Source: a virus
Taxonomy: Duplodnaviria > Caudoviricetes
DNA: 64,000 bases
Virus record (IMG/VR): IMGVR_UViG_3300037512_001142
Coordinates: 22,733 to 86,732 of that record
Strand: one strand, 5' to 3'
Numbering within the stretch: the stretch's first letter is position 1; every line of letters begins with the position of its first letter. The notes under the pieces were generated by a model. The model was not told the DNA's origin. It was given only the letters and a program-made list of their open reading frames with translations, and did no database searches. Position numbers and translations under genes: made by a program. Below are positions 1,661 through 63,461 of this stretch, piece by piece.

Positions 1661-3013
1661 TTATTTACTCGGAATAAACGGCTTTGGTTCTGATTTATCG
1701 TATTTACCGCTGTAAGTAATACCTTGTGTTTTTGTATCGAAATTGAAATTCATACTACTTACAGTTCCTTCTTCCGTATATGACGTATAATATGCAGAAT
1801 ATGTATTGAAATATTTGTCATACATGGTCTTGATACCGAATTTAATTGTATCGTCATCGTTATCACCAAAACCAGATAATGACATATATTCCTTATCGAT
1901 TTTCCATGTGTCAATATACGGGACATCTACAATCTGATATGCACCTGCTGACGGTACATATTGTTCTTCTGGGTATGTTATATGGGCAGAAGCTGGACAC
2001 CATCTCTTAGTTTCCTTGACAAGAAGTTTGGAGTCTTCTTCATACGTCGTTAATTGCTCCGTACGCGTGTAGAAATACTCCGTTGTCTGAGTCAGGGTTT
2101 CATCATCCCAGGTAACAACGGGCTGTCCAGAAAGCACGTATGCGCTCGTAACGAGCGTTCCATAAACCTTAGAGAAGTCATGTGGCGAATCAATCGTTCC
2201 ATTCGGATTTCCAAATACTTGTGCATGCCACAAACTACCGGCAGTATGTTCGGCCTGTAAGAACGTATTGATTTTCGTGATAATCTGAGCAGTCTTAATC
2301 GGCAAGTAATAAACAGCTTCGATAGTAAACGAAATTGTTCCAGTAATCTCACGACGGTCTTCTTCACCCATGGCATCATTATCAATCTGAATACCAGGAT
2401 CATTCATCTTGAGCTTAATAGAACGACGCTTATTGAAGAACCAGAATTCCTTTACCGACAAGAATGCGGCTGGACGGAATCTTGGAATTATCTGTTCATT
2501 AAGCTGGTTCAAGTCATCAATCTTTTCGCAATGGAAAATCATTGATACGTCAATATTTACCGGAGCCGGCTGAACGTCAGACCAGAACTGTTCTTCCATA
2601 TCGTATTCGATACCAGCTTTAGTCAATACATCATTATAGAAAGCACGAGTCTCATAAACGCCGGAATCACGGTCAGCTGCATAACTAACCTTGTCAAGCT
2701 TATAGGTAATATTCGGCAAAGATAAATAAGCCTTATCTCCAGATTCCTGTTCGGTTCTGAAGTCATGAGACTTCTGTCTTGGACCATATTTAATTGGAAC
2801 GTTAATCCACTTTTCTACTTCCTGGTTTTCATTTCTTCGACCGACATACATATCGTTAAAGAAATTACCGAATGCGGTCATAATGGCACGGGTCGTATCT
2901 GCAAAATAGTAATTGGTTGGATAACCAAAATTCTTTTTTGTAGGGTCACCGGCCTTATGATAACCGACCAAATGCGGTTTAAATCCAGGCTGTTTATAAT
3001 TTATCATTGCCAT
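1661..3013 (-). CDS. gp15: T4 gp15-like tail sheath stabiliser / tail completion protein with C-terminal extension
   Basis: Motifs VPIKYGPRQK, LPNITYKLDKVSYAADR and PAPVNIDVSMIFHCEKIDDLNQLNEQIIPRF match the gp15 pattern (VP..Y.P..K; LP...F....I.YD..R; P.P.N....L........DD..QI.EQILP.F). Confidence 0.85.
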   Translation of the reverse strand: MAMINYKQPGFKPHLVGYHKAGDPTKKNFGYPTNYYFADTTRAIMTAFGNFFNDMYVGRRNENQEVEKWINVPIKYGPRQKSHDFRTEQESGDKAYLSLPNITYKLDKVSYAADRDSGVYETRAFYNDVLTKAGIEYDMEEQFWSDVQPAPVNIDVSMIFHCEKIDDLNQLNEQIIPRFRPAAFLSVKEFWFFNKRRSIKLKMNDPGIQIDNDAMGEEDRREITGTISFTIEAVYYLPIKTAQIITKINTFLQAEHTAGSLWHAQVFGNPNGTIDSPHDFSKVYGTLVTSAYVLSGQPVVTWDDETLTQTTEYFYTRTEQLTTYEEDSKLLVKETKRWCPASAHITYPEEQYVPSAGAYQIVDVPYIDTWKIDKEYMSLSGFGDNDDDTIKFGIKTMYDKYFNTYSAYYTSYTEEGTVSSMNFNFDTKTQGITYSGKYDKSEPKPFIPSK

Positions 3014-3023
3014 GAATTACCTA

Positions 3024-3446
3024 TTACGAGAATTTAGAAATTAAACCGTATTCAGCTTCGAGAGTTTCAAGTGTACCAGTAATTAAACTGTTAATTGCCG
3101 GCTGAGCTTCGAACTTCTTTCCAATAACAGCCAAGTCATCATTGTACTTACGGAGCTTGCGAAGTGCATTTTCCGGATTATAAATCTTTCCGTCAACATC
3201 CGAAGGAATCGGGTTGATAGAGAACGCTTCCTTTGCAAGGCAGATTTCAACAAGAGCATCCGCAAAGTCACGAAGCTTCTCATAAACCGTCTGGAAATGA
3301 GTATGATGGAATCCGCTATCACATGACCAGTGATAAATATGAACCTGGTTGGCAAAGTTAAGAGTTTCGACAGCAAAAGTAAACAACGACTTGATGTCGG
3401 AAGAATTCTTATCTTTCAAATATGTTAAAAAATTTTCCTTATCCAT
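3024..3446 (-). CDS. small ferritin/Dps-like four-helix protein (DUF5856-like, common in T4-like phages)
   Basis: QVHIYHW...HHTHFQTVYEKLRDFADALVE resembles the H..HW...H..L...YE......D.LAE ferritin-like pattern. Confidence 0.6.
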   Translation of the reverse strand: MDKENFLTYLKDKNSSDIKSLFTFAVETLNFANQVHIYHWSCDSGFHHTHFQTVYEKLRDFADALVEICLAKEAFSINPIPSDVDGKIYNPENALRKLRKYNDDLAVIGKKFEAQPAINSLITGTLETLEAEYGLISKFS

Positions 3447-5656: not shown

Positions 5657-5668
5657 TATTTATAAATA
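5657..5668. promoter_or_regulatory. back-to-back T4-type late promoters (palindromic TATTTATAAATA)
   Basis: TATAAATA on both strands, each 4 nt from the ATG of the divergent genes (5652 and 5673). Confidence 0.85.
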
Positions 5669-5672
5669 ATGT

Positions 5673-6533
5673 ATGGATTTCAACAGTTTAAATAAGCTCC
5701 TTTCAGAATTCTGGACTCCTCAAAAATGCGGAAAACACAAAGATATTGCTAACCAGCATGGTATGCTTTTATTGAAACATTTGAAGACTTCTCCAGAAGC
5801 CTTTTTCGAATTTTTGAATAAGAATACATTTAAATTCCAGAATATCAGCGGGATTTCCTGGTCTGATTTTTTGACCAGATCCGGCTTGAACGGTTATCTG
5901 AATGATGGCTATATTGAAGATGCATTAAAAGTTACAACATCTCGTCCAGCTATCGGTAAAGGTGAATTCCTGTTTGTTTCATCTTTCAGCAATGTCTGTT
6001 TTACCGGAAAAGAAGGTGACTTAATCGATATAAGTCAAGGAGCAAGAATTGAAGTCAAGGGTGTTCGTGCCGAAATTTGCGGCGACGGTATCAAGTATAA
6101 GCAGATGAATAATGATGTTCTTTCTACTGCTTTCGGAGTTTATGATACGGGAACCAATTACCGTTATTTCAACCGTGATTGTGCCCGTGAACTTGAAGAA
6201 CTTATCAGACATACGAACAGTGACCAGAGCAAGCTTTCTCAGCTTCTTTGTAGACTTCAAAATATCTCTTCTGAATCCTTGGCTATCGCACAAAAATTCG
6301 CCAAGCTCTATCAGTACACTTTGTCCGATAATAACCTTTTCAATATTGTCGGCGCAATGCAACTCCATATATATTTAAAGAACGTCAAGTATCTTTTGAT
6401 GGTCAATAATACCGGTTTCAAATGTTTTGAAAATGACGGACGACCGGAAACACTTTTGAAATTTATCTCTGACGAAAAGATTAAGCTTTCTTCTTGGGAA
6501 ACCGGCGCAAAAGGAATGGAAATAGGAATCTAA
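5673..6533 (+). CDS. putative PD-(D/E)xK-fold nuclease-like protein
   Basis: GKGEF...GDLIDISQGARIEVKG matches a G.GE...GD...EVK nuclease-like signature. Catalytic status is unverified. Confidence 0.45.
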   Translation: MDFNSLNKLLSEFWTPQKCGKHKDIANQHGMLLLKHLKTSPEAFFEFLNKNTFKFQNISGISWSDFLTRSGLNGYLNDGYIEDALKVTTSRPAIGKGEFLFVSSFSNVCFTGKEGDLIDISQGARIEVKGVRAEICGDGIKYKQMNNDVLSTAFGVYDTGTNYRYFNRDCARELEELIRHTNSDQSKLSQLLCRLQNISSESLAIAQKFAKLYQYTLSDNNLFNIVGAMQLHIYLKNVKYLLMVNNTGFKCFENDGRPETLLKFISDEKIKLSSWETGAKGMEIGI

Positions 6534-6534
6534 T

Positions 6535-7941
6535 ATGGTTACTGGTAAAAAGATAATTTACAGTATTACTGACGCCGACGAAAACAACCGTCTAACCAGA
6601 ACTAATGCCCTCTGTGACATAGTTGTGTTATACGATTTCAACGAAAAAGAAAAGTCGGGTGTTCTTATTCCAACCGAAAAACTCGAATCTTTCACATTGA
6701 ATGAAAATATATTCGGTGCTCTTCCAAAATTACGTTTAAAGTTCTTTGATACTGGTGAATATTTCAAGAAGATAAATTTTGTAATTGGTAAAAAATTATA
6801 TCTAAAAATTACTCCGCGTCCAGCAGAAAATATGAAACTCGATTTCGTTCCCGCACCGTATATCGAGACTGTTTTTACTGTTCAAGAAGTTCAGACAACC
6901 TTTCAACCAAATATTCGTTATAACTATACTCTTGACTGTACCTATGGTTCTTTATCGTTCTTGAGCAAAATCTGTTTCTGGCCAAAAAGAATGCCGCCTT
7001 TAGATATTACTCCAGAATATCTCTCCAGCAAAGATGTTCTCTTGAAGGTTGCAGGCGAAGCAGGTTTCAATAAGCCTACATCTCAGCTTACCAGCGAACC
7101 GCAAGATAAAATGAACTGGTTAAGTACAAACTATACCTATGACCAGTTTATCAAGAAAATCGTAAGTCATGCATGGATTGACGAGGATGACGCACCATTC
7201 TATTATGTTGACAAGAATGGTACATTCTATCTTTCTTCTCTTAGAACCTGCGGTGAAAAAGCCGTTGTCGGAAGATACATGGAAATTACGAAATTACACC
7301 AGCTACAGCTTAAGAATAAAAACATTGAATCCAATTATAGAGGATATGCTGAAGGTTCCGTTCAAAATATGGGCTTTATGGCAAACGATGGTGGTAATGT
7401 AGCTGGAACTTATGTATTTAATCCGATGCATACTCCGATTATGGATCCACGTTACTTGAAACCGACAAGTACGCATACGATTATTCCATCATTTGACATG
7501 ACTGTGCATTATAGAAAATATACTTCTAGCTCTACTACTCCTGCATTTGTCAATGGTCTCGATAACCGTTCGGATGCAAGTGTTGCCAATATGAAATATT
7601 TGAATAATGCTTTCCACTTTATGGAAAACCACCAGTTCTATGATGTTGCACCAGGACATAATAAAGCACTTATTAGACGTTTCTTCCAGGTATTTGCTGA
7701 TATTGTCTACAACTGTAATAACCAGACAAAACGTGACTTTGAAGAAAACCAGCGTGTCAAATTATCTGATAAGATAAATATCGAATTCTCTTCTGGACTT
7801 ACTCAAAATGATACTTCGATTCATACTGGTGATTATATTGTTGCTGATTTAACCCATACCTGGACGGTTGGTGGTGCATACACCATAAATATTATCGGTG
7901 TTCGTGATACTATCACGAAGGAAGGAAGTTTAATTAAGTAA
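6535..7941 (+). CDS. probable baseplate hub protein (gp27/VgrG-N-like)
   Basis: Size, position directly before a gp5-like gene, and the segment QFIKKIVSHAW...PFYYVDKNGTFYLSSL, typical of hub/late-control-D proteins. Confidence 0.55.
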   Translation: MVTGKKIIYSITDADENNRLTRTNALCDIVVLYDFNEKEKSGVLIPTEKLESFTLNENIFGALPKLRLKFFDTGEYFKKINFVIGKKLYLKITPRPAENMKLDFVPAPYIETVFTVQEVQTTFQPNIRYNYTLDCTYGSLSFLSKICFWPKRMPPLDITPEYLSSKDVLLKVAGEAGFNKPTSQLTSEPQDKMNWLSTNYTYDQFIKKIVSHAWIDEDDAPFYYVDKNGTFYLSSLRTCGEKAVVGRYMEITKLHQLQLKNKNIESNYRGYAEGSVQNMGFMANDGGNVAGTYVFNPMHTPIMDPRYLKPTSTHTIIPSFDMTVHYRKYTSSSTTPAFVNGLDNRSDASVANMKYLNNAFHFMENHQFYDVAPGHNKALIRRFFQVFADIVYNCNNQTKRDFEENQRVKLSDKINIEFSSGLTQNDTSIHTGDYIVADLTHTWTVGGAYTINIIGVRDTITKEGSLIK

Positions 7942-7950
7942 GGTGAATAT

Positions 7951-8724
7951 ATGACAAATGACAGTGAACTCTATAAACGTTTTCGCGAAAACTTTGGTAA
8001 AAGTTTTGATGACTTTTTAAATGGCGCATATAACGAAGAATTACAAGAAGATAATAACCGTTGGACCGGTTATGTTATCGATAATTATGACCCTACTTTT
8101 AGAGGTCGTGTAAAAGTTCTCGTTATCGGTAAATATGATGATATTCCGGAAGCTTCTCTTCCATGGGCAGTTCCCGATATTTCATATCTCGGTTCAAAGG
8201 CCGGTAATTTTATCGTTCCTGAAACAGGTACTGTCGTTCGCGGATATTTTGATCACGGTGATATTCAAAAACCCATTTTCGATTCCGTAGCATATAGCGA
8301 AGATAATATTCTGAATTCGCAAGCAGCAGTTAGAAACCCGGCAGAATATCCGGATAAGATGATTCTTATGCAGACTGATATGGGTGAATGTCTTACCGTC
8401 AATAGACGAACTGGTGAAACCAAATTTGTTCATCGCTCTGGTACGACGATTTCGATTAGTCCTGTCGGTGATATTAAAGTTACAGCTGGTGGTGCTTCAC
8501 AGATGGCACAGGTATCGATTGAATCTGAACTTGCCGTAAATGTCAATGCCAAGTCTATGGGTCAAATCAATATCCATGCCGAAAACGGAAATATCATGGT
8601 TGACTCCGATAAGGGTCAAGTCCAGCTCGGTAAAAACCTTGCAAAACAGTTTGTCAATAACTTACCAAACTGTATCGTAACTGGCGCGCCTCATGCGGTC
8701 GGAAATACGAATGTTACATGTTAA
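7951..8724 (+). CDS. gp5: baseplate central spike, gp5-like OB-fold plus beta-helix, without a lysozyme domain
   Basis: WTGYVIDNYDPTFRGRVKVLVIG...LPWAVP...VPETGTVVRGYFDHGDIQKP is the gp5/gpV OB-fold motif. The C-terminal CIVTGAPH is a putative metal-binding tip. Confidence 0.8.
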   Translation: MTNDSELYKRFRENFGKSFDDFLNGAYNEELQEDNNRWTGYVIDNYDPTFRGRVKVLVIGKYDDIPEASLPWAVPDISYLGSKAGNFIVPETGTVVRGYFDHGDIQKPIFDSVAYSEDNILNSQAAVRNPAEYPDKMILMQTDMGECLTVNRRTGETKFVHRSGTTISISPVGDIKVTAGGASQMAQVSIESELAVNVNAKSMGQINIHAENGNIMVDSDKGQVQLGKNLAKQFVNNLPNCIVTGAPHAVGNTNVTC

Positions 8725-8756
8725 AAAGAAATCACCCATGAGGGTGATTTTTTTTA
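8725..8756. terminator. bidirectional terminator
   Basis: AAATCACCC-ATGA-GGGTGATTTTTTT. Confidence 0.75.
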
Positions 8757-9542
8757 TTTAATTATATTCCTATATTGTTCGCTGAAAGTTTCTAGTACAT
8801 TTAAATGGGATTTAATTATTCTAGCAATATCGTAAACATTGAATAGTTGAATCGGTATTCCGTCAGCGTCCTTGAAAGGTATAAAAAATTCTGATGTACA
8901 ATACAAATTGTTATATTTAATCGAATAGCTCTTTACCTTAAAATCAACGTCCGTATTTGAATTCTGAAGCAAAAAAGCACTAAGATACTTATGGACTTCC
9001 TTAATATATGACTTGGCGTCAGTGTGGAGTTCCTGCAATCCCTGGGTCAGTCTAACCTTGATTTTAACGACTGCTCCTTGTGGAGAAACAGATAAATCTA
9101 ATAGAGCAGCGTTGCTGACCGGATGTAATGCAATAATCAGGTTATTGCGGACATGTGTTACTTGACGAGAAGTCAATTTAATAGGTTTAAGTTCTTGTGC
9201 CTTGTCGATTTCATTCTTACAAATTTCGGCACATGCGTATTCATCTTCGTTTGTATCGTACAAATCAGAAATAGTATCAGTTATCTTCTTGTTATCAAGT
9301 TCGGATTCTTCATATCCCAGTTTTTCAAGAATCGTGTGTACACGTTTCTTATATTTTAAAAAGTCTGTATCAGCTGTAGCTTCGTTCATAGATTTATATA
9401 GTTTTTCAATGACTTTGGAGGCGGGAGTATCGTTAATATAGCATTCAAAAAGTTGTTCCATGTTATGATCCACAATACCCACATCGCGATGAGTTCTAGC
9501 TAAAATCTTCTTAATATTATTACAGTAATCTCCAAAAATCAT
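8754..9542 (-). CDS. hypothetical protein
   Basis: 262-aa ORF with a TATAAATA (9562-9569, minus strand) and AAGGA upstream; no family motif recognised. Confidence 0.6.
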   Translation of the reverse strand: MIFGDYCNNIKKILARTHRDVGIVDHNMEQLFECYINDTPASKVIEKLYKSMNEATADTDFLKYKKRVHTILEKLGYEESELDNKKITDTISDLYDTNEDEYACAEICKNEIDKAQELKPIKLTSRQVTHVRNNLIIALHPVSNAALLDLSVSPQGAVVKIKVRLTQGLQELHTDAKSYIKEVHKYLSAFLLQNSNTDVDFKVKSYSIKYNNLYCTSEFFIPFKDADGIPIQLFNVYDIARIIKSHLNVLETFSEQYRNIIK

Positions 9543-9572
9543 CTAGCAAATTTCCTTACTATATTTATAGTT

Positions 9573-9683
9573 TTATTTAAGGAAACCGTCTTGCCATAAT
9601 TCGTAGATTTTACCAATTTTGTCAGTTAAAACAATGCCTGTGGCCTCGTCCTGGACAGTAATTTCTTCATTCGGATCCAAACA
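9573..9683 (-). other. atypical split intein N-fragment (IntN, 36 aa)
   Basis: CLDPNEEITVQDEATGIVLTDKIGKIYELWQDGFLK-stop begins with Cys at the position where T4-like terminases continue QE[FY].C-EFLG, and has the intein block-A pattern plus KIGKIYEL. Confidence 0.8.
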
Positions 9684-10532
9684 TGCGTATTCCTGGTTGA
9701 AGAACTTAATACCATGGTCACGAATAACCTTCTTTCTGAATGTTTCATCACGACCGTCGATTTCATTCCAGGCAATCTTAGCCGGAACGAACGTATTGAT
9801 ACCAGCGAGAGCGCTTTGCCAAATCTTATAGAACTGGTTCATTCCCTTAGGTGTCGAGATAAGAATCAACATACTGGTCTTACGAGAAGCCTGGGTCGGA
9901 ATAACCGACATCATAAAATCGTCAGCATCCTGTTCCGGCAAGTGCGCAAATTCGTCCACTAGCATAAGGTCAACGGATTTACCACGAATAGCGGAAGAAG
10001 AACTAGCAGCACAGAAAATCTTACAACCGTTATCGAAACCGATTGATTTCTGTGACCAGCCACCACGGTCCGGATTGATACCTTGTTGCAGCCACATAGG
10101 AAGTCTCAGAACTGCAGCACGAATACGGAGCATAATTTCAATAGCCTGCGATTCCTTGTTAGCCAGAACTGCAATAGTCTTGTCCTTGTGGAACAGTGCA
10201 TACCAAAGAATATAAAGTGTAGCGATCGTAGTCTTGCCAGCCTGACGACCAACCGTAATAATTCTGTTATTTCTTAGAACCTTTTCGCCCTTGGAATCGG
10301 TCATAACCGTTCCGTCATCGTTTCTCATGAAATAGGTTCCGCAAATTACCTTGATGAGACGTTCCTGATATTCTCTCAATTTAATAGGCAATTCGCCATC
10401 TTCTGTCAAAATGTAAAAGTAATTGGCAAAGTGGAAAATATCCTTTGAGCACTTCTCGTATTCCGCCCATTGTTCTGGAGTCATTTCCACATTTTCGTTG
10501 TGGCCTCTTAGTGTATCGGTTCCTTGGAACAT
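9573..10532 (-). CDS. terL: large terminase, N-terminal ATPase half only, fused to a split-intein N-fragment
   Basis: Walker A VGRQAGKT, Walker B LMLVDEFAH, motif III ISTPKG and LREYQ are present. The reading frame stops 36 aa after QEYA; the nuclease domain is absent. Confidence 0.92.
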   Translation of the reverse strand: MFQGTDTLRGHNENVEMTPEQWAEYEKCSKDIFHFANYFYILTEDGELPIKLREYQERLIKVICGTYFMRNDDGTVMTDSKGEKVLRNNRIITVGRQAGKTTIATLYILWYALFHKDKTIAVLANKESQAIEIMLRIRAAVLRLPMWLQQGINPDRGGWSQKSIGFDNGCKIFCAASSSSAIRGKSVDLMLVDEFAHLPEQDADDFMMSVIPTQASRKTSMLILISTPKGMNQFYKIWQSALAGINTFVPAKIAWNEIDGRDETFRKKVIRDHGIKFFNQEYACLDPNEEITVQDEATGIVLTDKIGKIYELWQDGFLK

Positions 10533-10582
10533 AGTTTACCCCTTCATAGCTTATATCTTATTTATGTCTGAATAATTGCAAA

Positions 10583-10609
10583 AATAAGGGCCTCTGGGAC
10601 CCTTATTTG
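10583..10609 (-). terminator. rho-independent terminator after the protease gene
   Basis: AATAAGGG-CCTCTGGGA-CCCTTATT inverted repeat with flanking A/T runs. Confidence 0.65.
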
Positions 10610-10627
10610 TTTGCCTAATATCTTTTA

Positions 10628-11311
10628 TTAGAATGTCTGAATGAACTCTTTAAATGCGTCCAGAATGGCCTTAGAACCCTTCTTATCGACTTCCTTATTG
10701 AAAGCCTTCTGGCCAGCGATAATACGTTCACGCTGTTCAATGAAAAGTCCGGTATTTTCGTTAAGAACCCACTTGGAAACATACTGTACGGATTCATACA
10801 TAGCGTCAGTATAAGCGACCTGGGCAGATGGCATGTAAACCGAGTCGATTGTGACAAGGTTATAGTCGTCAGCGACCATGTTGCCTTCGGTCAAATTACC
10901 GGTACCACGAGACGAAACACCCATACGAACACCGTCGAGCAAGAGAGATTCGAGGAGCTTGCCGTTAGGAGTATGCAAAACCTTTGCCTTACCCATAGCG
11001 AGATTACCGTCCATGTGAAGATCAGTAATCATGATTGCTGCTTCACGAGGGTTGATTTCGATTGTTTCAGGGTGATTGAGTTCGCCAAGAGCTTCACGTG
11101 ATTCGATGAGCTTCTGGAATTTATTAACTTCACGTTCAATAATTGCCTTAGAATAAGTACGACCATTACGGTTTACTTCTTCAGCCATCATGAACGGACC
11201 ACTGATATACATGGTCTTCATGTTGTTGCCAGCATCTTCAAGCATAGATTTTGCTTCAGCGCAGGCTTCTTCGCACAATAGCTTTTTTGCTTCCATAATT
11301 AAAATCTCCAA
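10628..11311 (-). CDS. gp21: prohead core protease
   Basis: YISGPFMMAEEVNRNGRTY, ALGELNHP, GVSSRGTG and DSVYMPSAQVAY are canonical T4 gp21 (peptidase S77) motifs. Confidence 0.95.
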   Translation of the reverse strand: MEILIMEAKKLLCEEACAEAKSMLEDAGNNMKTMYISGPFMMAEEVNRNGRTYSKAIIEREVNKFQKLIESREALGELNHPETIEINPREAAIMITDLHMDGNLAMGKAKVLHTPNGKLLESLLLDGVRMGVSSRGTGNLTEGNMVADDYNLVTIDSVYMPSAQVAYTDAMYESVQYVSKWVLNENTGLFIEQRERIIAGQKAFNKEVDKKGSKAILDAFKEFIQTF

Positions 11312-11411
11312 TGTTGTTTACTATATTTATAGAATTTTTACAATTTTTCTGGAGATTTAATTTCAGCTTTGCCTTATAAATAATATATAAAATCATAAAA
11401 AGGGATTTAAA

Positions 11412-12677
11412 ATGGAACATTTATTCAAAACTGACGATTCTAATATCGCATTTAGTCAGGATGAAGCTTTCGATAACATCATGGAAGCGATGTCACATGA
11501 ACCCAACTGGGTCAAGGTGATGAAGTGGGCTGTAAGTATTCATTTCAACAGCCCGCATACCAATGATGGCCAGCTGATTCCTTCTCACATTGGTAACTAT
11601 TTCTCGACAATTCGTTTCAAGAGCTGGAATAGCAATAATAATCCTGCTCAAGGTCAACGTCCGACACAGCTCGCGCTTTATTATGAAGGTCGCTTGAAAT
11701 CTGAAATTGTTCATGGTTCTACCACGATTACTGATATTCGCCCATTCACTATCATGTATGCTATTGATGGTAAGGACGAAATCAATGCGGTAATCAAGGA
11801 TAATAAGGCATTCCTTAAGGCTTTGGAAACCGGTACTCCGAATTTCTCCAAGATGGCTCCTGAACTTCATAGCCTTGCTCAAAACTGTGTTCGCTACGCT
11901 ATGGTTTACTGGAAGAATGACGCTCATGACGCTCTTATCGTTAAGGGTTCTCAACTTGAACGTTTCGGTGAAATCTTGAAGGACAGTACACTTGCTCCGA
12001 CTTCTGTTCTTCGTGACGGTTCTAAGAAGGGCGGTGTTGGTACTGGTAAGTATATCACCCCGCAAGGTTATGTATTCACTGTTCCTGCTGACAAGGTAAA
12101 GGTTGCTAATGAATTCATCAGCCAGTGTAACTGGTACGGCGGTGTCGAAACTGAAGTTACCGATGAAAACGGTCATACTTCCAAGAAGAAGATTGGTTGG
12201 GGCACGAGTACAGAATTTCCGACAAAGACTCTCGAAGATGGTTCCATGCTTTGCGGTGTAAGTAGCCATAACGAATTCGCTAATGTCATAATTAACAAGC
12301 TCCTGGATATGGGTGTAATTGAAAATGACAAGGTTGATAAGGTAAGTCTCTTGACCGACGGTGGTCGTCAGAAGGCTGGCGGTATGAATGCCATTATCAA
12401 CAAGATTGCAAACGGTGATTCTCCAGATGCTGCCTCTTCTAGATCCAGCAAGAAACCGCCTGTTACGCTCGCTTTCGATACTGAATCCTTCGGTATCGGT
12501 GCCAAGCTCACCAATGCAATGGTACGTAAAGCTACTCTCTCCAATTCTCGTTCTACTGCTGATATTTCTATTGACGATGACGCAGAATCGGTTACGATTA
12601 CCGGTATGGCTGAAAAGGATGTCGCTAAGATTATCGCGTTCCTTGACGCTAAGGGAATCAAGTACAGCAAGATGTAA
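11412..12677 (+). CDS. hypothetical protein
   Basis: 421-aa ORF with an upstream TATAAATA, an AAGGGA SD-like sequence and a downstream terminator. Confidence 0.7.
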   Translation: MEHLFKTDDSNIAFSQDEAFDNIMEAMSHEPNWVKVMKWAVSIHFNSPHTNDGQLIPSHIGNYFSTIRFKSWNSNNNPAQGQRPTQLALYYEGRLKSEIVHGSTTITDIRPFTIMYAIDGKDEINAVIKDNKAFLKALETGTPNFSKMAPELHSLAQNCVRYAMVYWKNDAHDALIVKGSQLERFGEILKDSTLAPTSVLRDGSKKGGVGTGKYITPQGYVFTVPADKVKVANEFISQCNWYGGVETEVTDENGHTSKKKIGWGTSTEFPTKTLEDGSMLCGVSSHNEFANVIINKLLDMGVIENDKVDKVSLLTDGGRQKAGGMNAIINKIANGDSPDAASSRSSKKPPVTLAFDTESFGIGAKLTNAMVRKATLSNSRSTADISIDDDAESVTITGMAEKDVAKIIAFLDAKGIKYSKM

Positions 12678-14418: not shown

Positions 14419-14430
14419 TATTTATAAATA
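14419..14430. promoter_or_regulatory. back-to-back late promoters TATTTATAAATA
   Basis: Palindromic double TATAAATA between divergent genes 14414(-) and 14465(+). Confidence 0.85.
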
Positions 14431-14464
14431 ATATAAATACAATAAAAGGTTTAAGGAGATTTTT

Positions 14465-20236: not shown

Positions 20237-23200
20237 ATGGCAAAATATTCAGTGCCAGGAATTCGTTTTACGGAAATTGACAATACAATCCGTACTGAAT
20301 CCGAACCGGGCCTTGGAATTGGCGCTATCGTCATGAAATCCAACAAGGGTCCTGTCAACCAGCGTATTGTTACCCGTAATTATAATGAATTCGTAGAAGT
20401 CTTCGGTGAACCCGAATCCTTGACCGACTACGGTCACTTCGCAGCCGAAAACTATTTCGCAAATTCCACCCAGCTTTTTGCCGTTCGTGCAACTATGGGT
20501 GATGAACAGTATGCACAGCTTCAGTTTGCATATCCGGACGCCGTAGACGTTAACAAGTCTAGCGACACCGGTGTTTTCAAGTATGTCGACTCTCAGTCCG
20601 ACTACCAGCTCAAGCTCATTCCGAAGCTTAGCACAGTTGATAAGAACATTGAGTCTCTTACTGGCAAGGGCGAATGGCAAGTTCCGACTGGTCTTACCGG
20701 TGATGACCCAAGCGACTCGTTCTATCTTTACAAGGACGCACGCTATGACATATTCAAGGACATTTTCTCTAAGAGTAACGACGTCGTAGTTTATAAGACT
20801 CTCGGTCAAGAACCGAAAAACAACAGCGACATCCCTAAGGGTGAACACGTTAATTACCCGAAGCGTTGGGATAATGATATTGCTGTCGTTGATGAACTTA
20901 TTTTCACAGAAGAAGCATGGAATACGCTTTCTGCTGATAAGGACATGATTACCTATACAACCTCCACCCCAGGTGAAGGCGGTAAGCGTGAAATTATTAT
21001 TACTATTCCTGCTGATAATACCTTGAACAAGAGTGCTACAACCATTCAGTTCTACGGTATGAACTCTGCCGTTAGTGGCTGGGGTACTTCCGGTGTTGCA
21101 TATAATGAAATCTTCACTAAGGAGAATTTCTATGACCCGAATGACCAGCTCGATGATGCTTGGTCTAATCCTACCGCTACTTATCGTGCAACGCAGGCAT
21201 ATAAGATGTCTATCTGTGACTGGGAAGACCCAGATACTCCGAAGACATACTATGTTGACGCCGATTCTATCGATGATGATTATGACCAGAGCTCTGTTTC
21301 CGGCATTGCTTACACTGAATATGGCTACGTTGATGAAACTTATGACATTATCAGTGATTACGTTGTTAAGGAAGTTAGCGATATTCCGGCTGGTCTTCTC
21401 AAGATTGAACCGATTGCTGATATGTACAAAGATACTACCAGCGGTTACGATCCGGTAACTCAGAAGGATAACGTATCTCCTCGTGATATTGTTAACCGTG
21501 TAATGGACGATAACGGTATTACCGATATTTCCGAAATCACCAACTATACATACCTCCGTTATGTAAGTGTTCTTGATAACTTGTCTGTTATCGAACGTAT
21601 CGTTAAGGAAAAGCCGGAAGAATTGACAAAGAAGATTAACACCGACCTCTTCTACCTCATTGCCGATTCTGACAATAATGTGTTCAAGAAGATTCCAGTC
21701 TTCGAATCCGATCAGATTGCTCCGGCAATTAATCCGATTGTTCCTGGCTGGCAGTATGGTCCTGATAATAGCAAGACTGTTGATAGCATTGTTGCTACTC
21801 CGACCTCGTATCTCGTCAACTCTGTTGACAAGACTTACGCCGACGGTTATACAGTTTTGACCCAATCCGAAGATGAACCTGGTAACGGCGATATTGAAAA
21901 GTATGTCAGCCTCCCGGATCAGCTCGTCATTGCTTCTATTGGTCCTGGTAAGTATGGTAACGATGTTGGTATTTCCATCATCACTACCGAATGTGCCAAT
22001 ATTAAGGCTCTCCAGCATCAGAATGCTTTCAACTGGAAGTATGCGTATGATGACGAAGACCTCGTTAACAAGGACACTACCGGTATCGACCAGAACCCGC
22101 AGGATTTGACTTGGAAGAAGGTCTTCCGTATTAACGTTTATGTAAAGAACAAGACCCAGACCGCCGCTGGCGCATGGGGAACCGGTATGGATGCTCTCTT
22201 GAAGGATCCTGCTGAATCTTGGTTCGTTTCGACTGACCCGCTTGCTAAGGACGCTGACGGTAATCCGCTCTTCGCTCCGACTGTAATTAACGGTCACTCC
22301 GATTACATCTACATTTCTCGTAATTCTACAAATGCAGCTCTTGACTGTAAGGGTAACTACTTGCAGCCTAAGCAGACCTACTCTGTTTACGCTCTTGAAG
22401 GTGGTCGCAACTCTCAGAAGAACAACATCTCTGAAAAGACCGCGGCTCTCAACTTCTACCGTGACCGTCAGAAGGCTAATTTCGACATCTTGTTCAACGT
22501 AGACGCTATTGATACATTCAATGGTCGTCAGCGCTACAACGCTCACCAGCGCAAGATTGCTGAAATTGCTGCAAACCGTACTATGGATATTGGTGTTGTT
22601 CAGGTTACTTCCAAGGCTGCAAAGACTTGTAAGGCCATGATTTCCGAAGCTAAGATGTTTACATTCGCTAATGGTTCGTATATCGCTGAATACGGTGGTT
22701 ACGATAAGTATTACAATGCTACTCTTGCTGCATGGATTTACTTGCCGAAGTCTGTCGCTGGTGCATGCGCAATGGCTCACTGCGATACTTTCGATTATCC
22801 TTGGATGGCCCCTGCTGGTGTTGCACGTGGTACAATCCCGTACACAACCGGTCAGTTGCTCCGCTTGAGCGATAACGAAATCGGTCAGCTCTACGATAAT
22901 AACGTCAATACAACCCGTGACTGTGGTGGTTATGGTGTCGTTCTCTGGGGTCAGAAAACTGCTCTCAAGAAGAACAGTCTCCTCAACCGTATCAATGTCC
23001 GTCGTTGCTTGAACTACATCGAAAAGCAGCTCGAGAACATGATGACGCCTTACCTCTTCATGCAGAACTCTGTTAATACTCGTTCGTCCGCACGTAATGA
23101 CATTGACTCGTTCTTGCAGCGTGTTAAGGCAGCGGAAGGTATCGAATCTTACGCCTTGAGCGTCACTCAGGATCCTGAGGACCCGACAATCATGAACGTA

Positions 23201-38459: not shown

Positions 38460-38471
38460 TATTTATAAATA
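38460..38471. promoter_or_regulatory. back-to-back late promoters TATTTATAAATA
   Basis: Palindrome between divergent genes 38431(-) and 38476(+). Confidence 0.85.
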
Positions 38472-51931: not shown

Positions 51932-54900
51932 TATTCAATCTCCAAAATTAAACCGCCACTTGCTCCAGAAACATTACACGGCATTGACCAGGACTGTGTA
52001 CCGTCACATTCACCCATGCCAATATTTATATACATGACATTATGTCCACGAGTATCAGTTACATACAAACCGTCCAAATCATCACAAATAATACCACTTG
52101 CAGCCGTGATGTAAGAATCAACTCTGAGGTTTTCAAGAAGACACTTTTCAGAGAACATTGCACCAAGGTGTAACGTACTACCGTCATAACGAACTTCGTC
52201 ATTCATGCCATTATAATACTTACTTTCCGTTCCACGGTAGTTCGGAGTATTCAACGGATCCATAAACCAGAAACCATATTTGTCATTTCTTTCATCAATT
52301 TCAACTCTATGCTTGAACCATGTAAATGTACCATCTACAACTTTCTTAGAGAAATTGTATTTGAACTTGTCTGTTCCACCATAAGTATCAGCCTTATCAG
52401 CCTTAATACTATTACCCTTGACACCAATGTAAATTATATTAGTCGGGTCATTCTTTACATGATCGCTCATACGTGTAACCATAGTATCAGTTTTGAGATA
52501 CTTAAATGGTTCGGTTGAAAGTACCGGAGAATTCGAAATTGCTGGGTCACTCCACACAGGCGTATAGTGAGAATGGAACTCGCCAACACTATTCGGATTA
52601 TAACGATAACGGTCAATAATACAAAGTTCAGATTCCGGCAAGAATCCACTATACTGTGAATACCAAAGAACGTTATTACTTCCGAAATACATCATAGGTG
52701 CAAGCACCTTATTCTGAGTATAATGACCACCACGAACAAGCTGGTCATTCGAAGACTGCTTTGCAAATCCTAATCTTGATGTATTGCTAACTTCAGCATA
52801 CTTAGTCTGAGAACCGAAACGACCATAACCATTTCCGTCATAGACCATGTGACCATAAGTTTCATCATCTTCATAATGGCCATAAGTAGCATTGTTAATC
52901 TTGACTTGACCCATATCGAACAAGTGGTCAAGCAAATAACCAGTAGTCTTACCACGAGTTTCAGTTTCGCTATTATCAAGAGCGAATCCGTTAACAGAAA
53001 GACACTGTGCAGAAGTTTCATCACGGTTGATTACACCAGCAATACCCGGAAGGTCAACACAAAGGTTAACAGACCAGAAGTTCGGGTCATTTGTAGGTGC
53101 TGCAAAATTCTGGTCCATAGTGAACATACCGACACGCTTGTAAACTGCTGAAGCTTCAGTATCGCCATAGTTAGGAATATTAGAAAGAGGCGATTCAAGA
53201 ATCGACGGAATAGCAATATAAGTCGGTTTGATTTCAGCAATGAACGGCAATGCGATACCAAACGCATAAGAAGGTTCAATCTTACCCGTATCTTCTGTAA
53301 ACTGTATATCCTTATTGGACAGATACATTGGTCCATAATAACGGAATGGGAATATATCGTTATTATCATTATCAGATTCATGATAAATACAGTTAATATT
53401 CGTAAAATGAATATACGGATATTTAGCACCTTCAACAAAATTCGTGGTATTATACTTATCGCTGATATTACAGGAGTTATATTCACAAACTGCTGCAAAT
53501 GGCGCGAATCTATTATCGAAAGAAAAGTCATGCAAATCCGGTAAAGCAAACGGCTGGTATGCATACATCAAGCTACGATTATACAAACCGACACGCATAC
53601 CTGCGGAAATCGGGAAACCTGCGGCGTCAACATTGTAGCCATAAGTATTACCGCTATAATCCATGGATTTTACATGAACAATACCTGTACCTGAAACATC
53701 GAAAAAGCCATTTTTATTACCGATAGCACTGAGGTTAGCTGGATTAAAGAAACATCCAGTATTTCCCGAGTATTGAATATCAAATGCGGTAATATTAACT
53801 ACCTGACCAAGGTCTTCGATTCGACCCGCATCATAAGCACGTTGGTTGACATAGTAATCAAATTTGGTCTTATGAGTATTGTACAAATATGCGGAAATAT
53901 TACTCATTGTCTGTTCAGTACCAAGTACAAGAGAACCGAACATTGCACCAATATTCTTGATAGATTTCAACTCAATATTATAGTTCTTACAACCGTTGAA
54001 CGTATAGTGTTCAAGCATGTAAGAAACAACTGGCTTCAAACCATCTGGTTTTTCATAGTTTGCAATAAAGCATTCATTAGCTGCCTTATTACTGAAATAA
54101 TTACCACCAATCTTTTCCGAATTCAAAATATGCGGAATCTTCATGGTATACACTTCATATTTCGGTTGGAGACCACCAACTTCACGCATAAACGTCAATT
54201 CAATGTCCATGGCACCAATGATATTGAATGTATTATAACTGTAATTATTATTTCCATAAATTCCCATCATGTTCAAATAATTACGTTCTTTATTGGAAGG
54301 AATATTTATTTCATTCTTGTATTCAAGTATGAAACCACCAATACTACAAGAAACAAGTTTAGTATCAGAAATAAGATAACCAGAAGTATCTACATACTTA
54401 TATGCGTTAACATCGCCGCTCAAAGATACACATGAACCAATATTCATGCCGCCACCGTTATAGGTACGTTGTGGATTCATGTTATATACGGCAAACTGAC
54501 TACCACCGGCATAATTGATACCGGAAACGAAACCGATATTATTAAGTTCGCAAATCTTGAGTGTCTTACCGACGTCACCATTCGGATAGTCTCTACTAGC
54601 TTCAAGTACATATTTAAAATCGTTTTCCAGCGATTCTTCATGGCCATAATTACCGTACAAATAAACAATACCTGTACAGTTCGGATCTACCAAACCGATA
54701 GGCTGATTTATCGTTTCAAAGTTAATCAATGCAAGTTCATCAGCATAACTAAATTTAAGTCCGGAATATGACGAAGTAGTATTAACAGCTGTGACTTCAC
54801 CCGAGAAGCTAGACGAATTCAATAATTCGTTAAGCATCAATTCACCAGGCATAAACTTGGTGTTTTCGTTAATATCAGGAATGTAGTATGCAGAATACGA

Positions 54901-56982
54901 AGAATACGATTTGTCAGTAAGCGGATTATTTGCCGGAGCACCAATCATTCCATAACGATACATCACGTGTTTATATGCGGATTGCGACATAGTAAACACG
55001 TGTGTCATCGAACCGTCAACGATTTCCTTACAACCATTCAAATTAAGTCTTATAACAGAAGTATCACCCCAGTCCCAAGTACCATCGCCCAACGTACCGC
55101 CAAATTTATTATAATACTTATAATACTTTTGAGGCGCCATTGCGGTTGTATTAAAGAAATCCAGGTTAAGTACACTGTAACCGCCGCCGTGGTTTTCCCA
55201 GAAACAGTTTCCAGCAATATTATCAGATACGAGAGTAAATGTACCTGTATCATTGCCGAAGGAAGTAATCATATCACCATCGTCAGAAATATATCTCTGA
55301 CGTTTCTCACTAATATCTGCTGCAGTAAGGTTAACACAAACGTTATTAATTGTTTTATAATCTGCGGCCTGCTTACCTGCAATACCGCCCAAGAAACCTA
55401 CATAAGTTCCAGAAGTATAAGCAGAAGCATTCATTGCAATATTGGCAACGTTACCTTCATTACAACCAATCAGCAAACCGGTATTATAAGATACACGGTT
55501 GAACTGGTGCATTTTCACTGCTCTATCCAAATACTGTGTAGCAGAAATTTCATAATTGAAAATTCTCGTACCCGCAGCAGGATCACCACTCGGTGTAGAC
55601 GATACCTTAAACATAGAAAGTTCAGAGCACCAGTCACCTTGTTTATCGGCAAGGAGTGCATTGGTATCAAACATCGCATTGATGTTATAAAATAATGTAT
55701 GACCAGTTACTTCATACAAGTCCTTATTATTTGCAGCGGATGGATAAGCCCATTCAGCACAAGAGCTATTATCGTACGGATAGAAATAATTTACAGTCGC
55801 AGCGTCGCCTACTACTGAAATATCGCCGGCATACATACCGTTTGATTTCCAATAGCCTCTATTAATTCCGCTCATTGCTAAAGAACCGAAAACGCCTTCA
55901 CCGAAATAACCGATATATGGCACAATATTTGACATAGAGTTTATGCACAAATAATCCGGATAATATCTATTAGCGTCAGGATTATCAAATGCATTACCGT
56001 CGTCATCTGTCTTATTACGAACTGGATATGCACCAGGAATAAAGTCAGTAATTGTAACGCTACCCTGGAAAAGAACGTCACTGATTAAACCGTTATTCTT
56101 ACCACAAAGAAAACCGGCATTTACGTCACATGCATCATCGGTCATGTGGTCAATGCTTATCTTCTTATTGCACTTCAAGAGGTTATGACCTTTAATTCTT
56201 ATAGTGCTGATAATACCAGAAGTACCAAGATAACCAATAATACCGCTGCTATTGGCATTACATTCGAGAGCAATATTTTCAATAATATAGCCGTTACCGT
56301 AGAAAATACCTTCATACGGTCTATCTACGTACATACCGATACTGAAATCGATATGCTTATAACTATTTTCTTCAGCTTTTCCATAACCAAGGTTGTCACC
56401 GAGAACGATATTGATAAAGTTATTATAAACTGGGGATTTTGAACCGCCGATAATACCATTAACCTTATCTGCACACCATTTCAATTCTTCTGCAGTTTCT
56501 ACATAATAGAAACCTCTAGCCTTCATAATTGGAAGGGTAGTTTCCGGATCCACTTCACCGGTATCGTATAATCTTCTGAAAGAACTATTTTCGTCAAAGA
56601 AAATAGCATAAAGATGTGGCTGGTTTGGATATTTTTCATTGAATTCGTCCCAGTTATCCATGTCAACATAAGTCGGACGTTCGGCTTGGACCGTAGACGT
56701 ACTGACCTTATAAGTATACTTGACAGCCTGAGCATGAGAAGTATACTTATTAAGTGCCATACCTTTTCTTGCGATAGTTGGATCATTCACAAATACATAT
56801 CTTTCCACATCTGCAAGTGTACCAAGCTTCGGAAGAATATCTTTCAAATCTTCGCCAAAACTTTTATTAACAAGATGAAATGTCCAAACATCTTTGTCAT
56901 CCAATCCACCTTTTAAAAGATAATTCTTGTATGTATTAAAAATAAATGAATCCATATTACCACTTCTTTGCAGCGTCGACAT
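51931..56982 (-). CDS. giant tail-associated adhesin/fibre with GLUG-like repeats
   Basis: VETAEELKWCADKVNG...YEGIFYGNGYIIENI...GIIGYLG...NAGFLCGKNNGLISDV and later GLLIGCNEGNV, GGIAGKQ, GAMFGSL are GLUG-type motifs. The N-terminus FIFNTYKNYLLKGGLD resembles a minor-tail anchor. Confidence 0.65.
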   Translation of the reverse strand: MSTLQRSGNMDSFIFNTYKNYLLKGGLDDKDVWTFHLVNKSFGEDLKDILPKLGTLADVERYVFVNDPTIARKGMALNKYTSHAQAVKYTYKVSTSTVQAERPTYVDMDNWDEFNEKYPNQPHLYAIFFDENSSFRRLYDTGEVDPETTLPIMKARGFYYVETAEELKWCADKVNGIIGGSKSPVYNNFINIVLGDNLGYGKAEENSYKHIDFSIGMYVDRPYEGIFYGNGYIIENIALECNANSSGIIGYLGTSGIISTIRIKGHNLLKCNKKISIDHMTDDACDVNAGFLCGKNNGLISDVLFQGSVTITDFIPGAYPVRNKTDDDGNAFDNPDANRYYPDYLCINSMSNIVPYIGYFGEGVFGSLAMSGINRGYWKSNGMYAGDISVVGDAATVNYFYPYDNSSCAEWAYPSAANNKDLYEVTGHTLFYNINAMFDTNALLADKQGDWCSELSMFKVSSTPSGDPAAGTRIFNYEISATQYLDRAVKMHQFNRVSYNTGLLIGCNEGNVANIAMNASAYTSGTYVGFLGGIAGKQAADYKTINNVCVNLTAADISEKRQRYISDDGDMITSFGNDTGTFTLVSDNIAGNCFWENHGGGYSVLNLDFFNTTAMAPQKYYKYYNKFGGTLGDGTWDWGDTSVIRLNLNGCKEIVDGSMTHVFTMSQSAYKHVMYRYGMIGAPANNPLTDKSYSSYSAYYIPDINENTKFMPGELMLNELLNSSSFSGEVTAVNTTSSYSGLKFSYADELALINFETINQPIGLVDPNCTGIVYLYGNYGHEESLENDFKYVLEASRDYPNGDVGKTLKICELNNIGFVSGINYAGGSQFAVYNMNPQRTYNGGGMNIGSCVSLSGDVNAYKYVDTSGYLISDTKLVSCSIGGFILEYKNEINIPSNKERNYLNMMGIYGNNNYSYNTFNIIGAMDIELTFMREVGGLQPKYEVYTMKIPHILNSEKIGGNYFSNKAANECFIANYEKPDGLKPVVSYMLEHYTFNGCKNYNIELKSIKNIGAMFGSLVLGTEQTMSNISAYLYNTHKTKFDYYVNQRAYDAGRIEDLGQVVNITAFDIQYSGNTGCFFNPANLSAIGNKNGFFDVSGTGIVHVKSMDYSGNTYGYNVDAAGFPISAGMRVGLYNRSLMYAYQPFALPDLHDFSFDNRFAPFAAVCEYNSCNISDKYNTTNFVEGAKYPYIHFTNINCIYHESDNDNNDIFPFRYYGPMYLSNKDIQFTEDTGKIEPSYAFGIALPFIAEIKPTYIAIPSILESPLSNIPNYGDTEASAVYKRVGMFTMDQNFAAPTNDPNFWSVNLCVDLPGIAGVINRDETSAQCLSVNGFALDNSETETRGKTTGYLLDHLFDMGQVKINNATYGHYEDDETYGHMVYDGNGYGRFGSQTKYAEVSNTSRLGFAKQSSNDQLVRGGHYTQNKVLAPMMYFGSNNVLWYSQYSGFLPESELCIIDRYRYNPNSVGEFHSHYTPVWSDPAISNSPVLSTEPFKYLKTDTMVTRMSDHVKNDPTNIIYIGVKGNSIKADKADTYGGTDKFKYNFSKKVVDGTFTWFKHRVEIDERNDKYGFWFMDPLNTPNYRGTESKYYNGMNDEVRYDGSTLHLGAMFSEKCLLENLRVDSYITAASGIICDDLDGLYVTDTRGHNVMYINIGMGECDGTQSWSMPCNVSGASGGLILEIE

Positions 56983-62547: not shown

Positions 62548-63429
62548 TTACCAACCCTGGAACGGGTCGTAATATTTTTTATTATTGTCCATCGGACGTT
62601 CATCATCGTATTCTACTGACGGTTCAGGATATTTGTATTCGACATGGCTATTGACGTTATCCTTGGGCTTATCTTCGGCAGTCTTATCCTTAGGCAAATC
62701 CTTGTTAATTTCAAGAATATCGCTGTCAGGTCCGACTTTTGATGTCGGATGACCGGTAGAAGTTTTATCGTCAATATCGAATATCTCGTCTAGTTCGCTG
62801 AATGTTCTCATCTTATCCATATTGTCCTCGTTAAGGTTGTCAATATCGACATTCTGGTGTGTATTTCTCCAGATTCTCAACGTGAATGTATAGGTAATCG
62901 GACTGGAAAGGAATGACGTTCCTTCGGCGAAAGTTTTTACGTTGATGACCTCATAGAAAAGGTCAGAATACTCGAGATAAATTATATCTCCGATTTTTGG
63001 AACTTCCGAATTATACTTTATCTGGTTCGTTCCGTATTCATATCTCGAAGCTTCCATGAAATGTTGGATTGTACACATACAGGTGATGACTTCTTCATAA
63101 GTCATACCCTGAAGAGTATAGGTCTTCTGATATGCCGGCAACTGTTCCGCATACATTTTCAGTGTGAATCTTCTTCTTACATTCTCGAGAGGATCTTCAC
63201 CGTAAAGTCTGTCCTGTTTAGTAGAAATATCCTTGATATAATACTGGACTTCGAAACCGAAATTACCGAAAGCTTCGGAAGTTAAAGATGACATGAGTGC
63301 AGCTTCTGCAGCATAACAGTCGTTATTCTGACTATCAAAAAATTTAGGAGCTGTCCAGTCCTTATTTCTGATTGAACAACTGCCACTTTTAAACAATTTC
63401 ATGAATTCTGCAGCGTAGTCTCTTGCCAT
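62548..63429 (-). CDS. gp14: neck / head-closure protein, gp14-like paralog B
   Basis: EAFGNFGFEVQYY...DRLYGEDP, PKIGDIIYL...YEVINV and YTFTLRIW; C-terminus shared with paralog A. Confidence 0.8.
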   Translation of the reverse strand: MARDYAAEFMKLFKSGSCSIRNKDWTAPKFFDSQNNDCYAAEAALMSSLTSEAFGNFGFEVQYYIKDISTKQDRLYGEDPLENVRRRFTLKMYAEQLPAYQKTYTLQGMTYEEVITCMCTIQHFMEASRYEYGTNQIKYNSEVPKIGDIIYLEYSDLFYEVINVKTFAEGTSFLSSPITYTFTLRIWRNTHQNVDIDNLNEDNMDKMRTFSELDEIFDIDDKTSTGHPTSKVGPDSDILEINKDLPKDKTAEDKPKDNVNSHVEYKYPEPSVEYDDERPMDNNKKYYDPFQGW

Positions 63430-63433
63430 AACA

Positions 63434-63445
63434 TATTTATAAATA
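63434..63445. promoter_or_regulatory. back-to-back late promoters TATTTATAAATA
   Basis: Palindrome between 63429(-) and 63462(+). Confidence 0.85.
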
Positions 63446-63461
63446 TATGTAGAGGTTTAAA

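Follow-up and report, generated by a model that had tools for sequence, protein, structure and literature searches.

Unlinked halves of an atypically split intein in the large terminase genes of a clade of huge T4-like gut phages

A fractured terL gene that ends in an intein fragment

Atypical split inteins of the large terminase (TerL) break after helix α1, at the "S2" site, and have a short N-terminal intein fragment (IntN) (PMC2677866, PMC13014065); the lengths of IntN and of the C-terminal intein fragment (IntC) are 37 and 115-122 amino acids (aa) in GOS-TerL, 25 and 104 aa in AceL-TerL, and 30 and 104 aa in the consensus Cat-TerL (PDB 6dsl), all of them established tools (PMC11766414). 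In the "fractured gene" layout (Dassa et al. 2009), a free-standing homing endonuclease gene sits between two neighbouring halves on the same strand. Here we describe a fractured terL gene in a stretch of phage DNA of 64,000 nucleotides (nt), hereafter the window (positions 22733-86732 of the 86,732-bp IMG/VR record IMGVR_UViG_3300037512_001142), whose product ends in a 36-aa IntN, and whose nuclease half is encoded, behind an IntC, by a distant gene in related genomes. The record (CheckV completeness 21 %) contains T4-like structural genes, including those of a gp21-type prohead protease and gp5-like baseplate proteins, and is collinear, at 73-90 % DNA identity, with a 411,059-bp contig that is 98 % complete (G001); the sequencing runs with the window-end sequence belong to 14 studies of bovine-gut or gut metagenomes. 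The source is a fragment of a huge T4-like bovine-gut phage with a genome of roughly 410 kb.

The gene in the window, terL-N, is located at 9573-10532 (reverse strand, stop codon included) and encodes a 319-aa precursor made of the ATPase half of TerL and the IntN, as called from the open reading frame (ORF) list and from matches to Pfam Terminase_6N (E 2e-17) and phrog_5989 ("terminase large subunit", E 3e-46); the coordinates given in the first-pass annotation for the ATPase ORF and its 36-aa tail (9683-9573) agree with both the ORF list and the sequence. Residues 1-283, the N-extein (9684-10532, reverse strand), form a gp17-type ATPase domain ending in ...FFNQEYA, which is alignable to residues 6-266 of Synechococcus phage S-PM2 gp17, and in which a Walker A motif (GRQAGKTT, residues 95-102) and a Walker B motif with the catalytic Glu (DLMLVDE, residues 188-194; LVDE at 191-194) can be found by eye. 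Similarity to contiguous T4-like TerL proteins is lost at residue 284 (BLASTP and tblastn, 2155 phage records), and nearly all alignments among the 2592 tblastn matches of terL-N in 50,697 phage records end at this residue. The homology to contiguous terminases thus ends at QEYA/C (a slash before Cys marks the predicted splice junction); for example, S-PM2 gp17 matches up to ...FTQEFE/C, with no real similarity beyond. From this point on, sequence, conservation and alignment define the IntN (9576-9683, reverse strand; CLDPNEE...DGFLK), 36 codons from Cys1 (Cys284 of the precursor; TGT at 9683-9681) to Lys36, which ends in ...IGKIYELWQDGFLK and is directly followed by a TAA stop codon (9575-9573).

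Cys1, with a homologous tail behind it, is present in 10 independently assembled relatives of terL-N (67-100 % identity), nine of which have the stop codon at the same position and share the tail pattern CLxxxExITV...G...TDxI...YEL..DGF. The exception (L009:242-1288, IMGVR_UViG_3300001598_001330; terL-N 67 % identical) has a tail of about 60 aa after Cys1, consisting of an IntN-like start, with only the first part of the shared pattern, and a Lys/Glu-rich, helix-like extension. Compared with L005 (86 % DNA identity), the extein has 73 synonymous and 2 non-synonymous codon changes and the IntN tail 4 and 1; compared with L007, the tail has 12 and 6. These counts indicate purifying selection on both the extein and the IntN. 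Since Cys1 and the homologous tail are kept in all ten relatives, and synonymous changes are in excess, the 36-aa tail is, judged from these sequences, no chance read-through.

The partner gene in related genomes and beyond the end of the record

A Pfam search of the window and of the whole 86,732-bp record gave no match to the Terminase_6C nuclease domain, as the first reading of the window had suggested, and tblastn with the S-PM2 TerL found no nuclease half in either. An IMG/VR scan with the 319-aa terL-N protein gave near-identical copies in G001 (TerL-N 99 % identical to that of the window) and in a 291,102-bp contig (G002); a more distant relative is a 424,163-bp genome with direct terminal repeats, rated 100 % complete (G003). 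G001 and G002 each contain exactly one Terminase_6C match, in a 350-aa ORF that begins with a 101-aa IntC ending in ...TPNGLINHN and continues with CSFIGSSQTLI... into a 249-aa gp17-type nuclease half. Terminase_6C spans residues 148-299 of this protein, and the nuclease part matches the RB49 and T4 gp17 nucleases among PDB sequences (E 1e-19 to 1e-15); the T4 gp17-type domain set, an N-terminal ASCE ATPase and a C-terminal RNase H-like nuclease with a catalytic Asp/Glu/Asp set, is complete but placed on separate genes, with Terminase_6N in the window gene and Terminase_6C in its partner. A genome-wide search for such an IntC-TerL(C) gene had been proposed with the expectation of C-E-F after the terminal HN; the gene that was found has C-S-F.

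The two halves are far apart in all four genomes. In G001, terL-N (271682-272638, reverse strand) and terL-C (331182-332234, forward strand) are divergent, with 58.5 kb between the start codons, and G002 has the same geometry (terL-N at 154971-155927, forward strand; terL-C at 95378-96427, reverse strand). The more distant relatives differ: in G004 the halves are on opposite strands and 45 kb apart (terL-N at 54658-55581, forward strand; terL-C at 8255-9310, reverse strand), and in G003, whose terL-N is 70 % identical to that of the window and whose terL-C is 56 % identical to that of G001, they are on the same strand and 53 kb apart (terL-N at 185460-186380 and terL-C at 239806-240861, both forward). 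The proposal that the C-half is unlinked is borne out by these distances. The neighbours of terL-N are the prohead protease gene (gp21-type, directly upstream) and a 262-aa gene of no assigned function, those of terL-C a RegA-like translational repressor gene and a baseplate-hub gene; there is no endonuclease gene beside either half in the examined genomes.

The last base of the record that aligns to G001 is 86,516 (about 325,615 in G001), 5.6 kb short of terL-C. We therefore aligned the Logan contigs of four runs to the G001 partner region (L075). In run X1, from the probable source sample, a 23,006-nt contig matches L075:4-434 with 60 differences; the window record shares all 60 of them (28 of the 28 listed differences are identical), and a 30-nt overhang of the contig equals record positions 86056-86085 exactly. 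The segment that ties the window to this contig, 63354-63784 (record 86086-86516), aligns to G001 just upstream of the partner region. The contig continues across L075:471-3075 and L075:4262-7372, the latter including the IntC-TerL(C) gene (6001-7050), with 408 substitutions and 6 gap letters over 3111 nt. Because the contig shares the record-end differences and the overhang, and covers IntC-TerL(C), the alignment indicates that the window's own phage carries the partner region about 7.3 kb beyond 86,516 (about 7.1 kb past the end of the record), some 60.6 kb from the terL-N start. Hence the earlier remark that no partner gene is nearby holds for the record, which has none, but is partly an effect of a 21 % record whose end falls about 7 kb before the partner. 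Among IMG/VR copies, the nearest is L079, which shares nine of nine marker letters; its protein is 88 % (IntC) and 96 % (extein) identical to that of G001, with NGLINHN/CSFIGSS intact; no IMG/VR contig overlaps the record end at near-identity.

When the G001 partner was searched against the record by tblastn, a single weak match was obtained (21050-21331, E 2e-4, 26 % over 96 aa), which we set aside as chance. This match (G000:C1:21050-21331; L185:4050-4331), 1.4 kb ahead of the window, falls within a large structural protein of no Pfam family that contains ...GRVKHRCIFIFDSKTPIDPGNLS..., similar to the end of IntC and the start of the extein, ...GLINHNCSFIGSSQTLIDPNVLS...; the resemblance is probably due to chance.

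These comparisons also bear on the idea that the split is an artefact (a misassembly or a frameshift) or a sign of decay, with terL dying and another gene supplying its function. The record is a fragment of a metagenome-assembled genome, and one relative has an internally deleted IntC-TerL(C); but the same architecture is seen in ten assemblies of different metagenomes, nine of them with the identical stop position, the window-end region recurs in runs from 14 studies, synonymous changes far exceed non-synonymous ones, and the only Terminase_6C match in the 98 % complete G001 is the split one. This speaks against the frameshift or misassembly that the first-pass annotation had considered, and makes artefact or decay hardly credible. 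The deleted copy (L093:6001-6859) has lost about 190 nt internally, with a frame change after ...KLKPGDLV, which makes it a defective variant or else a product of faulty assembly.

Evidence for a split intein and a probable route to the complete terminase

The IntCs of nine members of the clade keep F27-D28-N29, C34-S35-x-D37-H38 (block B, S/TxxH), T82-P83-V84-x-V86 (block F region), and N95-G-L-I-N-H-N101 followed by C102. In an alignment of 48 sequences that includes distant IntC-TerL(C) proteins, the invariant positions are H38, H100, N101, and D151, E209 and D293-D294 of the nuclease, and Cys+1 is conserved in at least 90 % of the sequences. A phmmer search of IntC against 1.84 billion representatives returned 136 clusters; many are proteins of 350-400 aa with an N-terminal IntC and then HN/CxFxG, and others are proteins of 600-1000 aa that have QE[FY]x[CS] and HN/CxFxG 132-149 residues apart, a spacing that marks them as contiguous mini-inteins at the same terL site. 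The window IntN (36 aa) and the G001 IntC (101 aa) add up to 137 aa and are end-to-end collinear with these mini-inteins of 132-149 aa, with the split point in a loop of variable length after the first helix. The tail had been taken for an atypical split-intein N-fragment at the terL site, and its alignments agree: it aligns to the first ~35 residues of the contiguous mini-inteins, and to the IntNs of Vibrio phage K469 and of a canonical split locus (L109). The IntN by itself gave only chance matches among PDB sequences.

Both fragments have the features of the atypical type. The IntN is 36 aa long (~25-37 aa in the type), starts with the Cys nucleophile and ends after the first helix; the IntC, in near-identical and related genomes, is 101 aa long (~100-122 aa in the type) and has CSIDH, blocks F and G, and NGLINHN/C. 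The insertion site fits QE[FY]x/C[ES]F[LI]G, with FFNQEYA at the end of the N-extein and CSFIGSS at the start of the C-extein. The IntN has a net charge of -5, and the first 30 residues of the IntC one of +3. When the exteins are joined in silico, the resulting 532 aa give one high-scoring segment pair with S-PM2 gp17, gapless across ...QEYA-CSFIGSS....

We modelled the partner protein with AlphaFold2. A first model from nine sequences was poor (predicted local distance difference test, pLDDT, 48) and was not used; the model from the 48-sequence alignment has a pLDDT of 81, with IntC residues 11-90 at 76-87 and an uncertain last strand. Its residues 108-313 match the T4 gp17 nuclease (gp17 residues 360-561) with a Z score of 30.4, and residues 1-98 match inteins with Z scores of 8-9.7, including VidaL (9.7), NpuDnaB (9.5), gp41-1 (9.4) and Cat (6dsl_B, 9.2); two independent structure searches agree, and Foldseek gave gp41-1 with E 4e-5. 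The structural alignments begin at about residue 23-41 of full inteins, so that the absent part has the length of the IntN, which would provide it to the HINT fold. The best PDB sequence match of the IntC is CatC (6dsl_B), a weak one (E 0.04).

In what we regard as the most likely mechanism, with good confidence, two late precursors would be trans-spliced into a 532-aa gp17-type terminase. The first gene of the fractured terL would contribute the 283-aa packaging ATPase and the 36-aa IntN of a class-1 intein with an atypical split; from the second late gene, about 60 kb away, would come the 101-aa IntC (blocks B, F and G, ending in His-Asn), Cys+1 and the gp17-type nuclease of 249 aa. The IntN, which is acidic and probably disordered, would dock on a partly folded IntC to complete the HINT fold, Cys1 would carry out the N-S acyl shift, Cys+1 would take over the N-extein, and cyclisation of Asn101 would release the contiguous 532-aa TerL with the junction ...FFNQEYA-CSFIGSS... 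(also ...FFNQEYA-CSFIGSSQTLIDPNVLSDLMQK). The analysis shows the gene structure, the partner gene, the fold, the kept nucleophiles, and that the fragments are homologous to inteins, split as well as contiguous, at this site; from these we infer that the fragments associate and splice, at a late time, and that the product of splicing acts as the motor.

Several points weigh against this mechanism. The block F Asp of the aligned contiguous relatives is replaced by Thr-Pro in the window clade; the similarity to the characterised family is weak (26 of 94 IntC residues match those of the canonical locus L109); the partner of the window's own phage is known by its presence and by ~87 % DNA identity to G001, with an intact frame assumed; and the case for splicing is built from sequence and a structural model. 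The Thr-Pro would also suit the main rival, a non-covalent two-subunit terminase in which the intein fragments are docking modules that no longer splice. There is a precedent in a fragmented phage enzyme held together by interaction domains derived from a mobile element (PMC3045599), and the phages described here contain free ATPase modules in the form of a TerL paralog that has only the ATPase domain. Nevertheless, residues needed only for the chemistry (Cys1, the block B His, the terminal His-Asn and Cys+1) are kept across lineages that are 55-100 % identical, and we consider loss of splicing improbable.

The expression signals fit late co-expression of the two halves, but say nothing of amounts. 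In the window there are 36 copies of the T4 late-promoter motif TATAAATA (for example at 5657-5668, 14419-14439, 38460-38471 and 63434-63445) where 6.9 are expected; most stand shortly before a start codon, and some form overlapping divergent pairs. A one-mismatch T4-type box, CATAAATA (10559-10566, reverse strand), lies 26 nt upstream of the terL-N ATG and is a putative promoter; G001 has the same box at the same distance, and L007, L097 and L098 have an exact TATAAATA at this position. In G001, TATAAATA follows a hairpin and is 24 nt upstream of the terL-C ATG, and the starts of both terL halves share ...GGTAAACTATG. With late-promoter boxes before both genes, both precursors should be made late in infection. 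A terminator-like hairpin seen by eye upstream of terL-N (~10580-10604) was not called by the terminator scan.

The same signals argue against a repair of the message or the gene itself, in which a trans-spliced intron, or a programmed inversion or recombination, would rejoin the halves before translation: each half carries a complete conserved intein fragment with its own start or stop codon, a ribosome-binding region and a late-promoter box. Such repair has a parallel in the terL of the related Jug phages, which is interrupted by group I introns with RNA-seq support (PMC12880540), and the halves are on opposite strands in three of the four genomes, as expected of an invertible segment. In G003, however, they are on the same strand, 53 kb apart; no Rfam family was found at E <= 1 in window positions 7900-11500 around terL-N, the partner locus gave only three sub-threshold, non-intron Rfam matches, and the four runs contain no contig that joins the halves. 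We therefore regard repair at the RNA or DNA level as very unlikely, and trans-splicing of the proteins as the preferred explanation.

Relation to other fractured genes, and neighbouring features

The intein is, by its sequence, a distant member of the known GOS/AceL/Cat-TerL family and not a new type; of the "new atypically split intein" first proposed, the atypical split stands, while the type is known and only the arrangement is unusual. The window clade shares with this family the host protein (the T4-type large terminase), the insertion site (checked on L109), the break point, a short IntN, and an IntC with blocks B, F and G, and with AceL and Cat also the Cys1/Cys+1 chemistry (PMC11766414). 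It differs in that its IntC is only ~28 % identical to that of a canonical family locus, and in its host, a ~410-kb bovine-gut phage instead of marine or lake cyanophage-like phages. The sampled canonical halves are close together on one strand, whereas here they are 45-60 kb apart, without an endonuclease gene beside either.

For comparison, we sampled 80 of the 476 IMG/VR loci of the atypically split TerL intein family. Wherever there is enough upstream DNA, the ATPase half is upstream on the same strand, and the distance from its end to the HN/C junction is mostly ~1 kb (~0.4 kb if the genes are directly adjacent, 3.3 kb in L104); some of the loci are a contiguous gene. The one spacer inspected, in L109, contains a 189-aa GIY-YIG gene; the N-half before it has 301 aa, 29 of them IntN, and the C-half after it begins with an IntC of 103 aa that is almost identical to CatC. 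The window clade departs from this fractured-gene layout in each of its arrangements (58.5 kb divergent, 45 kb divergent, and 53 kb on the same strand). What is new is thus a divergent family member together with unlinked halves lacking an endonuclease, in three geometries within one clade of ~410-424-kb gut phages.

The most similar IntN that we found (CLWGDSTILLNDPRTGIMF...) is in the terL of Vibrio phage K469 (OZ195916), which has the same junction, an IntC ending in ITFHN/CSFRGS, and the same block F Pro as the window clade. K469 differs in that the reading frame of its IntN continues into a GIY-YIG/NUMOD3 endonuclease, with the IntC-TerL(C) gene directly behind. In GenBank, the fused gene (L002, OZ195916.1, 1-1962; ATPase half, IntN and endonuclease) is a 653-aa "terminase large subunit", and the product of 1949-3154, which begins with the IntC, is a "hypothetical protein"; the sequences indicate that a series of isolated Vibrio phages, nearly identical to each other, have a fractured terL that the annotation misses.

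Essential enzymes produced from two distant genes by protein trans-splicing, with no endonuclease between the halves, are found in cells, namely the cyanobacterial DnaE and the Nanoarchaeum PolB. Their split inteins are canonical (IntN ~100 aa, IntC ~35 aa) and belong to cellular replication genes; the phages described here share the distant genes with them, but have an atypical split in a viral structural/packaging gene. The terL of the Jug phages, which are also huge T4-like gut phages, consists of pieces that are adjacent, co-transcribed and rejoined via group I introns (PMC12880540), whereas the pieces here are non-adjacent and carry intein halves, and we detected no intron.

If splicing is confirmed, these phages would have a packaging motor that depends on trans-splicing of the products of distant genes, an arrangement known for the cellular DnaE and PolB, of which a limited literature search found no description for terL inteins or phage terminases. 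The three geometries in one clade suggest that after an intein has fractured a gene and the endonuclease is lost, genome rearrangement can part the halves and leave the phage viable. TerL serves as a standard marker in phage phylogenetics, and pipelines that accept only contiguous genes, or TerL proteins of at least ~400 aa (PMC12880540), would overlook or misplace this clade. The intein itself is a divergent natural split intein from a ~39 °C habitat, with an IntN of 36 aa that can be synthesised, and may be orthogonal to inteins already employed in semisynthesis (AceL, GOS and Cat).

Besides terL-N, the huge-phage clade conserves another TerL, an ATPase-only paralog of ~290-310 aa with 43-44 % identity to terL-N (L099:1327-2253 [G003:8818-9570, reverse strand]; G001:168310-169128, reverse strand; G002:258481-259299, forward strand). 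It reads QEYDTQFLGSVDG... across the intein site, with neither an intein nor a nuclease domain. Because of this conserved paralog and the separate late promoters 45-60 kb apart, one may speculate that the unlinking is functional rather than neutral, so that trans-splicing could set the amount or timing of the nuclease-bearing terminase, as a post-translational checkpoint for DNA cutting during the packaging of a ~410-kb genome; we consider this doubtful.

The 262-aa late gene downstream of terL-N (8754-9542, reverse strand) is in the same frame, separated from it by TAA, 10 codons and TAG, and a tblastn segment pair ran across both stops. Read-through from terL-N into this ORF was rejected because the ORF comes with a TATAAATA box and a start codon of its own and resembles neither terminases nor inteins, in line with the earlier view that the next gene is unrelated to terL. 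The box (9562-9569, reverse strand), between the terL-N stop and the gene, is conserved in relatives, which suggests that the gene is a separate late unit and no continuation of terL. An alternative genetic code is not needed either, since long structural ORFs are open in table 11. The 262-aa product has no Pfam family, no usable match in an ESM Atlas search, and only a weak PHROG match to a small terminase subunit (E 0.006), and its gene does not adjoin terL-N in G003. Between this gene and the convergent gp5-like baseplate gene is a bidirectional terminator-like hairpin (8724-8755) with a 14-bp stem and T-runs on both sides.

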